Below, piece by piece: positions 40,039-61,434 of a stretch of DNA of 64,000 nt. The DNA lies in the sequence record KM607001, one strand, 5' to 3'. Made by a program: the position numbers and the translations under genes. Position 1 is the stretch's first letter, and each line of letters starts with the position of its first letter. Source of the stretch: Enterobacteria phage RB33. A model generated the notes under the pieces. It was not told the DNA's origin, did no database searches, and worked only from the letters and a program-made list of their open reading frames with translations.

Positions 40039-40509
40039 TTAATCATGTTTCCACACCCCATCGGTATTTGACCAAAGCCGCTGATTATCTGATCCTCGCC
40101 ACAGCTTTTTGGTCGGAAGATTTTTCTCATACTTCCCATCAATAATAACATCAACATATTTAAGCATTTCTAGTTGTTTAATATCTTCAAACTTATATCC
40201 TGTCCACAACCAAATGCTTTTATTGGGATAAAGATTTTTTACTGTTTGAACAATGCAATGAATAACATCTCGGTTATCAGGATAGAGAGGGTCACCTCCA
40301 GTTATAGTCAATCCTTCTATATAATCATTATTCAAACATTCAATTAATTGCTCTAGTGTTTCACCAGTGAATGGAATACCATTTCTAGCATTCCATGTTG
40401 ATTTATTATAACACCCTTCACATTTATGCAAACAACCTGTAACGAAAAGAACGGTCCTGCAGCCAGGACCATTAATAAAATCGCAAGGATAAAATCTATC
40501 ATAATTCAT
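40039..40509 (-). CDS. nrdG: anaerobic ribonucleotide reductase activating protein NrdG (radical SAM), 156 aa
   Basis: radical-SAM-type cysteine motif CLHKCEGC; ATGA overlap with nrdD. Confidence 0.85.
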   Translation of the reverse strand: MNYDRFYPCDFINGPGCRTVLFVTGCLHKCEGCYNKSTWNARNGIPFTGETLEQLIECLNNDYIEGLTITGGDPLYPDNRDVIHCIVQTVKNLYPNKSIWLWTGYKFEDIKQLEMLKYVDVIIDGKYEKNLPTKKLWRGSDNQRLWSNTDGVWKHD

Positions 40510-42323
40510 TGGTGTTTAACCCTATGCATGATTTCTTTATTTTTGCCGAGATTAAATCCGCGTTCGTTCGGATTTCCCAAATAACCACACGTTCTTCTTA
40601 TTGTGTTCATCTTTTTAGGATCAGTTTCTCCACAAATAGAACAAACAAATCCGTTTTCAGTAGGAGTCATTTCATGGGTACTTCCGCATGTAAAACACTT
40701 ATCTACTGGCATATTAACACCAAAATAATCTAAATGTTGTGCAGCATAATCCCATACAGCCTCAAGACCTTTTAGGTTATTTTTCATATCAGGAAGTTCA
40801 ACATAAGAAATGTGACCACCTGTCGCAATGAAATGATATGGCGCTTCACGAGAAATCTTTTCAAACGGAGTAACATTTTCTTCTACTGAAACGTGGAAAC
40901 TGTTAGTGTACCAGCCTTTATCGGTAACATCTTTTACGCTTCCATATTTTTCTGTATCAAGTTTACAGAAGCGATAACAAAGGTTTTCAGCAGGAGTCGA
41001 ATACAAACTAAAAGCAAACCCAGTTCTTTCAGTCCACTGTTTAAGATGAGCATTCATTTTAGTTAAAATTTCTCGTCCAATATCACGACCGACAAGAATA
41101 TTCAATTCGTGAATACCAATGTATCCTAGGGACACTGAACTTCTACCGTTTTTAAATAACTCAATTATGTCGTCATCAGGTTTAAGACGAACCCCGAATG
41201 CACCTTCTTGGTAAAGAATAGGAGCAACAGTAGCTTTAACTCCTTTTAAGGAACTAATTCTACACATCAAAGCTTCAAAACACAAATCCATACGTTCATT
41301 GAATAATTCAACAAATTTCTGTTCGTTAAATTGTGTTCCAATATAAGAATCTAATGCAATGCGAGGAAGATTCAGTGTTACAACACCAAGATTATTACGT
41401 CCATCAAGAATTTCATTACCAGTCGAATCTTTCCATACGCTCAAGAAACTACGGCAACCCATTGGAGAAACAGGAATAGATGAACCGGTGATAGCTTTAT
41501 TATTCTTAACTGAAATAATATCAGGATACATCCTTTTGCTTGCACACTCTAGAGCAAGCTGCTTAATATCATAGTTCGGATCGTCTTTATAAAGATTAAC
41601 GCCTTCTTCAACGAACATAACAAGTTTAGGAAAAATAGGAGTTATCCCATCACGACCAAGACCTTTAATACGATTTTTCAAAATTGCTTTCTGAATCATT
41701 CGTTCAGTCCAGTCAGTTCCCGTACCAAATGTAATTGTTACAAAAGGAGTCTGTCCGTTTGAACTAAAGAGAGTATTTACTTCATATTCATAAGCTTGGA
41801 ATGCATCGTATACGTCTTTTTCTGTTTTAGATTGGGCATAATTCAGTGCATCGGCGATTTGCCATTTTTCTGCGTCCTCGATATGTTTTGCATAGGTGCG
41901 TTTAACATAAGGAGAAAGTACTTTATCTACATTCGCAAAAGTCGTTCCGCCGTATTGGTGAGAAGCAACCTGTGCGGTAATTTGTGCCATAATTGCAGTA
42001 GCAACGCCAATTGATTTAGGAGTTTCAATCTGCGCATTACCAAGCTTAAATCCGTTCTCAAGCATTCCTTTTAAATCTACTAAACAACAATTAGTAAATG
42101 GAAGAGCAGGGGAATAATCAATATCATGAAAATGAATAATTCCGCTTTCATGCGCTTTCATAATAAAAGACGGGACCTTATTTTTGGCAATGTGTTTAGA
42201 CACAATACCAGCCATAAGGTCCCGTTGAGTTGGAAAAACACGAGAATCTTTATTAGCATTCTCGTTTAAAAGGTCTTTATTAGTTTTATGAATCAATCCT
42301 TCAATTTCTTTTTCAATTGTCAT
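40506..42323 (-). CDS. nrdD: anaerobic ribonucleoside-triphosphate reductase NrdD (glycyl radical enzyme), 605 aa, uninterrupted
   Basis: 605-aa ORF; C-terminal zinc ribbon CFTCGS...CSICG and glycyl radical region. Confidence 0.9.
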   Translation of the reverse strand: MTIEKEIEGLIHKTNKDLLNENANKDSRVFPTQRDLMAGIVSKHIAKNKVPSFIMKAHESGIIHFHDIDYSPALPFTNCCLVDLKGMLENGFKLGNAQIETPKSIGVATAIMAQITAQVASHQYGGTTFANVDKVLSPYVKRTYAKHIEDAEKWQIADALNYAQSKTEKDVYDAFQAYEYEVNTLFSSNGQTPFVTITFGTGTDWTERMIQKAILKNRIKGLGRDGITPIFPKLVMFVEEGVNLYKDDPNYDIKQLALECASKRMYPDIISVKNNKAITGSSIPVSPMGCRSFLSVWKDSTGNEILDGRNNLGVVTLNLPRIALDSYIGTQFNEQKFVELFNERMDLCFEALMCRISSLKGVKATVAPILYQEGAFGVRLKPDDDIIELFKNGRSSVSLGYIGIHELNILVGRDIGREILTKMNAHLKQWTERTGFAFSLYSTPAENLCYRFCKLDTEKYGSVKDVTDKGWYTNSFHVSVEENVTPFEKISREAPYHFIATGGHISYVELPDMKNNLKGLEAVWDYAAQHLDYFGVNMPVDKCFTCGSTHEMTPTENGFVCSICGETDPKKMNTIRRTCGYLGNPNERGFNLGKNKEIMHRVKHQ

Positions 42324-42793
42324 TTTAAACTCTTTCTAAGCTGCTTCTTAAATGAAGCTATTAATTGTGTTTTGGTGTCAGATTCATTATATTCAAATCC
42401 TCTTTGAAGCATCTCGGCCATCATTTCCTCTTTTCCTAAACGAGAAAATTCCTTTGATTTATCTCCAACAAAGTTAGGGTGAATATTATTTTGGGTGTAA
42501 TCGGATTTTAAATAAGTAAGTAAATTTTCTAACCATTCAAGATAATCAACACCTTGTCCCTTTAAGCCAGAACGATTAAATTTATGCTTCATTTGACCTT
42601 CTGCGGCATTGCATAGATTACAAAGCAATCCACGTACCTTTCCTGCTTTTGGTCCATTTAATTCATGGTCATGATCAAGATGATTAGCTTGAACATCAGG
42701 ATTTAGTTCTCGTTGGCAAATTAAGCATTTACCGTTTTGTGCATTATAAAATTTCTGTTTTTCTTCTTTGTATAATTTGCCAGTCAATAACAT
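42320..42793 (-). CDS. 49: endonuclease VII (Holliday junction resolvase) gp49, 157 aa
   Basis: zinc-binding CLICQ...CNLCN and H-N-H-like core; 157 aa as T4 gp49. Confidence 0.9.
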   Translation of the reverse strand: MLLTGKLYKEEKQKFYNAQNGKCLICQRELNPDVQANHLDHDHELNGPKAGKVRGLLCNLCNAAEGQMKHKFNRSGLKGQGVDYLEWLENLLTYLKSDYTQNNIHPNFVGDKSKEFSRLGKEEMMAEMLQRGFEYNESDTKTQLIASFKKQLRKSLK

Positions 42794-59976: not shown

Positions 59977-60255
59977 TTATTCTTTAAATCTAATCAATTT
60001 ATTCATAGACTTTGAAACTTCTGCACGAACCTCATGTAGATTTTTGAGCTGTTCAAGACGCTGCGTATAGTAAGCAATTTCATCTTCTTCGAGACAGTCC
60101 TGTGAATCTTCTTTAAGATAACGTGTATAGTCCTGAAAAGCGTTACGAACTACTTCCTGGAAATCATCAAGACTTTGAATTTTCTTAGTAGCAGCAGATA
60201 CATGACGAGGGGCAGTATAATACTCATAACCAAACCCTGCGCTTAATTGAGCCAT
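59977..60255 (-). CDS. hypothetical protein (vs.3 position)
   Basis: ORF in track; start moved to MAQLSAGF. Confidence 0.45.
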
Positions 60256-60521
60256 TAGTATTTTTCCTCTGGTTGGAACACTGCACGACAAGCCCACATA
60301 CTGGCTTCTTTGAGTTTCGTTTTAGCAATAGTTAACTGATCGAGGCTTTCGGCGTAATTCTTCACGAGTTCATCATCTTCACAATTATCTAGTGCTTCCC
60401 AGAATTCATCATACAAAGCATCAAAGATAAGTCCTAAACGAACTTCAGCATCTTTGATAGCATTCACTTTACTGATTTTATCGTCAGTATGTGGCTTATA
60501 ACCTTTAATGTCTTCAATCAT
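60255..60521 (-). CDS. hypothetical protein (vs.4 position; possible Acb2-like cyclic-nucleotide sponge)
   Basis: position only; start moved to MIEDIKGYK; identity not verified. Confidence 0.35.
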
Positions 60522-60735
60522 ATTTGACTTCCTCACCAGTACATAAATCGTATTCAACTAAACGAATAGGTTCATGAATGCCATATCCCTGAACAGAAAT
60601 TTCTGTCGTAGGATAAATTCCGTCAATATCACCCATATTCCACGCTTCATTAAATTGCTGTTCGCCTGAATTACTAAACCACTCGGCGAAAGCATTTAGA
60701 ACATCTTTAGAACCTTCAATAATTATCTTTGCCAT
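60514..60735 (-). CDS. hypothetical protein (vs.5 position)
   Basis: 73-aa ORF. Confidence 0.5.
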   Translation of the reverse strand: MAKIIIEGSKDVLNAFAEWFSNSGEQQFNEAWNMGDIDGIYPTTEISVQGYGIHEPIRLVEYDLCTGEEVKYD

Positions 60736-61097
60736 TACAAACTCTCGGTGAAGGTACGAGCGATAACGTCGCGCTGCTGTTCCGGAGTCAGAGAGTTAAA
60801 GCGAACTGCATAACCGGATACACGGATGGTCAGCTGCGGATATTTTTCCGGATGCTTAACTGCATCTTCCAGAGTTTCACGACGCAGAACGTTAACGTTC
60901 AGGTGTTGACCACCTTCAATTTTAACTGTAGGCTGTGGCTCAATTTCAATTTCACGGGCATGCAAACCATAGAAAATTTCTGGGTCTACAAAAGAGTCCT
61001 CTTTAAAGGTTTTAGAAACGATAATTCGTGCTTGAATACCATCTTCAAAATAAATAGTACCTTTATGTGTGCCTTCAAGAATTTGATATGCTTTCAT
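60735..61097 (-). CDS. GrcA/YfiD-like autonomous glycyl radical cofactor, 120 aa
   Basis: C-terminal ~60 aa ([55 protein letters not shown]) recalled as matching E. coli GrcA/PflB C-terminus. Confidence 0.8.
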
Positions 61098-61104
61098 ATA
61101 AACC

Positions 61105-61434
61105 TCAATTAGAAAATAAATTTATCCAAGATTGTTCTTTAATTAAAAATGGCTCAGAATCATATGCCATTAAACTTTGCGTAATTAATCCTTTAAAAGG
61201 TCCATCAATAAATTCCATGGTAAAATATGGAATTTTATTCATTAGCCGTGCATTAGGAGCCGTGCACAAAACTCTGCATCCTTTGAATACACCTTTTTGT
61301 AATTTGTATTGCTTGGGATAAAATTCGCTCAAAATGTTATTATTTGCTAAAATTTCAAAATGATTCACCAATTTATTTTTAATAGTTTTTGGCGAAAAAT
61401 AAAGATATTCGAAAAGCTGAGTGTCTGTCATCAT
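61105..61434 (-). CDS. hypothetical protein (vs.7 position)
   Basis: ORF in track; start moved to MMTDTQ. Confidence 0.45.

Follow-up and report, generated by a model that had tools for sequence, protein, structure and literature searches.

Two glycyl-radical spare parts have been validated experimentally, E. coli YfiD (GrcA) and the T4 protein Y06I, according to PMC8683613, which cites Wagner et al. (2001, BBRC 285:456). In that source, again with reference to Wagner et al. 2001, both proteins are described as receiving a radical from the pyruvate formate-lyase (PFL) activase (PFL-AE) and as restoring the activity of PFL cleaved by O2. Activated PFL is cut by O2 at Gly734 (PMC8683613). Residues 61-127 of YfiD fold like PFL residues 693-759; residues 1-60 are disordered, promote binding to cleaved PFL and installation of the radical, and are dispensable for catalysis (PMC8683613). 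From a genomic perspective, vs.6, the T4 gene for Y06I, belongs to the few ORFs of unknown function that are conserved in all T4-like genomes compared by Nolan et al. 2006 (PMC1524935).

The stretch of DNA analyzed here (64,000 nucleotides in full, referred to as the window) contains an ORF on the minus strand at positions 60735..61097, which runs from ATG to TAA and encodes 120 amino acids followed by the TAA stop codon. Judged by its sequence, this ORF is the ortholog of T4 vs.6/Y06I, an autonomous glycyl-radical cofactor of the GrcA/YfiD type, to which we assign a probability of roughly 0.9. The 1.1-kb stretch around the gene has a 100% DNA match in RB32 (NC_008515), and the window phage is a member of the T4 group (Tequatrovirus). 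The gene order vs.5-vs.6-vs.7 within the regB-vs cluster, all on the same strand, is common to the RB32 record and T4. The window gene agrees with the T4 ortholog group in position, strand, and near-identical sequence (98% nucleotide identity), and its product matches the T4 protein at 119 of 120 residues. The original prediction of a GrcA-like glycyl-radical spare part is borne out by this ortholog and its shared synteny. The gene and its mechanism are already known, the biochemistry coming from this T4 ortholog. For biochemistry there is nothing new, as the window protein is nearly identical to one of only two experimentally validated spare-part proteins. The assignment does have annotation value: T4 vs.6 is annotated by NCBI as "autonomous glycyl radical cofactor GrcA," whereas the RB32 record still lists the gene as "hypothetical protein."

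A GAGG motif resembling a Shine-Dalgarno sequence (61103..61106, minus strand) is located 5 nt from the vs.6 ATG, overlapping the TGA stop codon of vs.7, and has a putative ribosome-binding role for vs.6. At the other end, the vs.6 TAA stop codon and the vs.5 ATG overlap (TAATG). A scan for promoters and terminators returned 14 candidates compared to 12.9 expected from shuffling; therefore, no regulatory claim is made. An ORF antisense to vs.6 (60729-61112, plus strand) was disregarded, since it arises mechanically from the coding strand. The downstream gene vs.5 (60514-60735, minus strand) encodes 73 amino acids in the window versus 58 in T4 (extract L003, 5382-5558), and a Pfam search with vs.5 gave no match. 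Near the end of vs.6, a synonymous GAA-to-GAG change creates a GAGAG stretch approximately 8 nt upstream of the vs.5 ATG, which might act as a candidate ribosome-binding site of vs.5. Two genes downstream of vs.6, vs.4 (60255-60521, minus strand) matches the Pfam family Acb2_Tad1_hairpin (E = 1.4e-19) and is therefore recognized as the anti-CBASS cyclic-nucleotide sponge Acb2. It is labelled hypothetical in the RB32 record, and its ortholog appears as "anti-CBASS protein 2" in other phage records.

The family assignment is supported by profile and structure comparisons. The Pfam domain Gly_radical covers residues 61-101 of Vs.6 (E = 2.8e-18), and the top NCBIfam model is that of GrcA (TIGR04365, E = 3.7e-45), ahead of the PflB models. 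The score of 153.3 bits falls short of the equivalog cut-off of this model (170 bits), which was made for bacterial GrcA, because the N-terminal half of Vs.6 has diverged. Among PDB entries, E. coli GrcA/YfiD (6OWR) is the best match (E = 8.6e-42, 145 bits), with an alignment spanning residues 22-120, ahead of pyruvate formate-lyase (E = 5e-26, 94 bits). With 120 amino acids, Vs.6 has the architecture of the GrcA/YfiD family (IPR011140/TIGR04365), namely a protein of ~120-130 amino acids with a C-terminal PFL-type Gly_radical domain, and it carries the RVSGY radical-glycine signature of that family. The radical glycine itself, of which the original prediction recommended verification, is present as Gly95 in the motif RVSGYAV. 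Its GGT codon lies at 60813..60815 on the minus strand, and the sequence and the GrcA alignment make it equivalent to Gly102 of GrcA and Gly734 of PflB.

Compared to E. coli GrcA by BLASTP, Vs.6 shows 74 identities over 100 positions, and homology can be traced from approximately residue 20 onwards. These identities are unevenly distributed: residues 61-120 are 100% identical to GrcA 68-127, in contrast to ~36% identity for residues 22-60. The match of the last ~60 residues to the host protein, as stated in the original prediction, thus holds residue for residue, and so does the stated difference of the N-terminal half. In all 5426 E. coli genomes, grcA is the best match.

In the proposed mechanism, which follows what was shown for the T4 ortholog and for E. 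coli YfiD, O2 would attack the glycyl radical of PflB, cleaving the chain at Gly734 and leaving the enzyme dead. Vs.6 would bind the cleaved PflB, and its C-terminal domain (residues ~54-120, including Gly95) would substitute for the lost radical domain. The host radical-SAM activase PflA would then put a new glycyl radical on Vs.6, allowing the production of acetyl-CoA and formate to resume. During infection, Vs.6 may replace host GrcA and so maintain PFL-dependent fermentative energy metabolism in the micro-oxic gut. T4-type phages shut off host transcription and degrade host DNA, and therefore no host GrcA would be made and a phage copy would be needed. To our knowledge, no phenotype has been reported for a vs.6 deletion.

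The same features could also be read in the opposite sense, with Vs.6 as a decoy that competes for PflA or binds PFL non-productively, thereby shutting down or redirecting host fermentation. Because the radical domain is identical to that of the host, the host partners must recognize Vs.6, and the phage-specific N-terminal half could alter the outcome of binding. However, a simple binder would need neither the radical glycine nor the whole domain, which are both intact. In addition, the biochemistry of Y06I, as given in PMC8683613 (citing Wagner et al. 2001), shows PFL activity being restored, not inhibited. We consider a decoy function extremely unlikely and retain the reading of Vs.6 as a spare part for host PFL.

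A role in supporting fermentation would fit with the anaerobic ribonucleotide reductase system NrdD/NrdG of the phage itself. Both genes, which the original prediction had placed at 40039-42323, are present with the expected Pfam domains. NrdG is encoded at 40039-40509 on the minus strand (Fer4_12/Radical_SAM), and NrdD at 40506-42323 on the same strand (NRDD and Gly_radical, with the motif RRTCGYLG). Directly upstream of nrdD and overlapping its start is a 157-amino-acid ORF (42320-42793, minus strand), which, judging from its position and sequence, may be T4 endonuclease VII (gp49).

The Gly_radical domain is common to Vs.6 and NrdD, and from this shared Pfam domain Nolan et al. 2006 (PMC1524935) proposed a role in nucleotide metabolism. 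Accordingly worded, the alternative is that Vs.6 serves the phage NrdD, as a spare radical domain or modulator activated by NrdG, and not host PFL. Gene positions in two other phages point in the same direction. In Aeromonas phage PX29 (extract L092, 723-1578), the vs.6 homologue lies immediately downstream of nrdG and overlaps it, and in Yersinia phage fHe-Yen9-04 (extract L093, 1-1557) it lies one small ORF downstream of nrdD. Such adjacency may point to a functional link or to an "anaerobic module" of ancestral origin. In RB32 and T4, however, vs.6 and nrdDG are separated by ~18 kb. BLASTP of Vs.6 against the phage NrdD detects no similarity (E = 2.7), and Vs.6 does not belong to the NrdD domain family, as it also lacks the Zn-ribbon cysteines (CxxC...CxxC) ahead of the NrdD glycine. 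Its radical domain corresponds residue for residue to GrcA, and PflB is far closer to it than other glycyl-radical enzymes. Moreover, PMC8683613 (citing Wagner et al. 2001) describes T4 Y06I as working with PFL and PFL-AE. Based on these comparisons, Vs.6 is unlikely to act as an NrdD spare part in RB32, and we regard service to NrdD in place of host PFL as very improbable.

At the nucleotide level, vs.6 is a mosaic. A tract of 169 nt (60751..60919, minus strand; gene nt 179-347) is 100% identical to E. coli grcA. It is preceded by a 5' half of 178 nt (60920..61097, minus strand) with only ~45-50% nucleotide identity to grcA, a GC content of 0.34, and a GC3 of 0.20. The last 16 nt of the gene (60735..60750, minus strand; TTC ACC GAG AGT TTG TAA) contain five synonymous differences from grcA. 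The nucleotide alignment and codon-usage comparison that had been proposed as checks give 97% identity to grcA across the 3' half and a shift in GC3 from 0.20 in the 5' half to 0.45 in the 3' half. Similarly, local GC content peaks at 0.50 in the tract versus 0.26-0.40 in its flanks. The tract encodes the structured radical domain, comprising the beta-strand, the Gly loop, and most of the C-terminal helix. Its first codon corresponds to GrcA residue 67; thus, the portion of the protein that would insert into PFL and be recognized by the activase is the host's, whereas the auxiliary N-terminal half belongs to the phage.

Over the tract stretch, the grcA genes of E. coli and Salmonella differ in 24 of 59 synonymous codons, and those of E. 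coli and Citrobacter amalonaticus in 14 of 61. The older phage homologue of CC31 shows ~80% identity to grcA across the same stretch. At ~80% identity, the chance of an exact run of 169 nt equals 0.8^169 = 4e-17, and the match is therefore due neither to chance nor to protein-level conservation. The identity of the tract thus stems from a recent transfer of host DNA and not from protein-level constraint. The direction of transfer is host to phage: the composition of the tract is host-like, the divergence of host grcA follows an ordinary vertical gradient, and the flanks are phage-typical.

High conservation of the radical domain everywhere could still favor an explanation without DNA transfer, such as strong purifying selection or convergence, or an artefact from host reads in the assembly. 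Yet synonymous sites are all identical through 56 codons, whereas 20-60 nt differ in other phage homologues whose encoded domain is highly similar. The tract is also in frame, with phage sequence on both sides, in a complete genome. Furthermore, a megablast search with the 3' half of E. coli grcA recovers the junction in 752 phage records that were sequenced independently, and 638 of these match at 95% identity or more; among those listed, all full-length matches begin at grcA nt 199-202. We give these explanations almost no credence, and transfer of host DNA remains our reading of the tract.

The 3' end of the gene is of a different nature. No exact donor of the last 16 nt was found among the 5426 E. 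coli genomes, as none rose above the 95-99% identity band, and GAA AGC CTG TAA is the 3' end of grcA in every enterobacterial host sampled. The last 16 nt are therefore a phage-type end that flanks the converted tract. A search for host homology 3' of the vs.6 stop codon found none; thus, the tract must resolve within vs.6, in keeping with homologous recombination. In comparison to T4, the 3' boundary of the window tract is located ~10-12 nt earlier. The pflB/tdcE genes were ruled out as the DNA donor, the domain being 100% GrcA by residue and the GrcA score far above that of PFL. The conversions may have arisen from the phage recombination system acting on fragments of host DNA. In the laboratory, T4 is well known to recombine with cloned DNA that is homologous to it.

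Homologues of vs.6 were found by tblastn in 1588 phage records, the carriers including several T4-like genera, T5-like Demerecviridae, Aeromonas T4-likes, and a Yersinia jumbo phage. The amino acid identity of the radical domain is ~80% even in the T5-like and jumbo phages. Among T4-like genera, the 5' halves of vs.6 share 73-89% nucleotide identity, far above their likeness to grcA, and the Yersinia jumbo-phage copy has phage codon usage throughout (GC3 of 0.10-0.11). As homologues are widespread and the 5' half is phage-typical and diverged, the recent event was a partial overwriting and not the acquisition of the gene. By this evidence, vs.6 is a gene of long standing in phages, where it has been inherited vertically, and only the half encoding the radical domain has been overwritten by recombination with host grcA. 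The recent horizontal capture put forward in the original prediction hence holds for the 3' half, with its exact run of 169 nt, but fails for the gene as a whole, in view of the 1588 phage records and the GC3 of 0.20 in the 5' half.

Phage homologues are commonly annotated as GrcA or "pyruvate formate-lyase." In HildyBeyeler (extract L091, 1201-1569) and Salmonella phage beppo (extract L095, 1201-1569), both T5-like Demerecviridae, and in the Aeromonas T4-like phage Riv-10 (extract L090, 1192-1560), the GrcA homologue lies within a tRNA gene region. These copies are labelled formate acetyltransferase or 2-ketobutyrate formate-lyase, a mis-annotation of a 122-amino-acid protein. Among bacterial records, a grcA gene is found on a replicon of Klebsiella sp. 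WOUb02 labelled "plasmid unnamed4" (275 kb; extract L024, 1001-1381). An enterobacterial-type grcA also occurs in a genome labelled "Vagococcus sp. WN89Y" (extract L033), a Gram-positive genus, where it is probably assembly contamination or mislabelling.

To compare the patches, a 162-nt core (54 codons) was aligned with the grcA genes of E. coli and K. pneumoniae. The core of the window and RB32 differs from E. coli grcA at 0 positions and from K. pneumoniae grcA at 20, and that of T4 at 1 and 21, respectively. Two Mosigvirus phages show 4 differences each from E. coli grcA, and 21 and 24 from K. pneumoniae grcA. The pattern is reversed in two Klebsiella phages of the genus Jiaodavirus, with 20-21 differences from E. 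coli grcA and 4-5 from K. pneumoniae grcA. The core distance between the E. coli and K. pneumoniae genes is 20, and RB32 and Jiaodavirus are likewise 20 apart. The first genome sample (GTDB) contained no Jiaodavirus donor, its best match reaching 87.6%; the K. pneumoniae allele (extract L096) was obtained by a metagenome scan and comes from metagenome contigs, its protein being exactly GRCA_KLEP7. In the protein sequence of the domain, coliphages have the Escherichia type, and Jiaoda- and Slopekviruses have the Klebsiella type shown below.

TLLDAVEHPEKY

Together, these patterns make it highly probable, on sequence grounds, that recurrent, host-matched conversion of the radical-domain half of vs.6 took place.

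The patches also seem to differ in age. Between Tequatrovirus and Mosigvirus, 13 of 52 codons in the 5' half have synonymous differences, whereas the core, with its 54 codons, shows only 4 nt differences (Fisher p = 0.017), which suggests that the patch arose after these genera had separated. The Slopek- and Karamvirus copies show at least 25 differences from every sampled host, with GC3 values of 0.37 and 0.27, respectively, and look like older patches drifting to phage base composition. Within the Tequatroviruses, the last 21 nt vary: RB32 has TTC ACC GAG AGT TTG, T4 has GAA AGT TTG, OES_C-2 has GAG AGC CTG, and fFiEco06 has GAG AGC TTG, whereas hosts have GAA AGC CTG. All four combinations of GAA/GAG and AGC/AGT are present, as one would expect if several exchanges had ended at different points. 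Of the vs.6 3' halves observed, that of Escherichia phage OES_C-2 (Tequatrovirus; extract L176, 229-585) is the most host-like, differing at 1 of 185 nt. In the same phage, the N-terminal half of Vs.6 has a 2-codon deletion (REIETQPTV), giving a protein of 118 amino acids.

What drives these exchanges is a separate question. Tentatively, T4-type phages might repeatedly overwrite the radical half with the grcA of their current host under selection for matching, which would keep the spare part fitted to host PFL and its activase; we hold this to be possible but rather doubtful. The conversions could instead be a neutral consequence of homology, without adaptive matching; the radical domains of E. 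coli and Klebsiella differ at just two residues (E/L and K/E). If matching is selected, vs.6 would represent a natural case in which the allele of a phage auxiliary metabolic gene is updated from a host template, and a datable marker for the recent host of a phage lineage. The mosaic itself offers a clean, quantifiable instance of host chromosomal DNA entering a virulent phage through ongoing homologous exchange. Possible uses are to estimate the recombination frequency between T4-like phages and their hosts and to deduce a recent host from sequence alone. The searchable literature yielded no prior description of the DNA mosaic or of its host-specific recurrence, although an earlier mention is possible, and host-matched gene conversion would constitute a modest, possibly unreported evolutionary addition.

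Compared to the described systems, Vs.6 is closest to T4 Vs.6/Y06I (NP_049730), which likewise has 120 amino acids, is identical at 119 of them, and shows the same mosaic with E. coli grcA. The single difference is at residue 73, which is Arg in the window, as in E. coli GrcA, and His in T4. The homologues in Mosig-, Jiaoda-, Slopek-, Karam-, and Krischvirus and in the T5-like, Aeromonas T4-like, and Yersinia jumbo phages share the vs.6 architecture and radical motif. However, they differ in genomic neighborhood, being found in the tRNA region in T5-likes and beside nrdDG in PX29 and fHe-Yen9-04. E. coli GrcA (PDB 6OWR) resembles Vs.6 in being a small protein that stands alone and combines a PFL-type radical domain with an N-terminal half that is disordered or variable. 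Vs.6 is 7 residues shorter, its N-terminal half of ~36% identity is written in phage codon usage, and it resides in a phage gene cluster, in contrast to the ung-grcA locus of the host. Finally, Vs.6 has the fold and the RVSGYAVRF motif in common with the radical domain of PflB (residues 693-759; PDB 2PFL/1H16), which is thought to be the part that it replaces, but it lacks the ~690-residue catalytic barrel of that enzyme.
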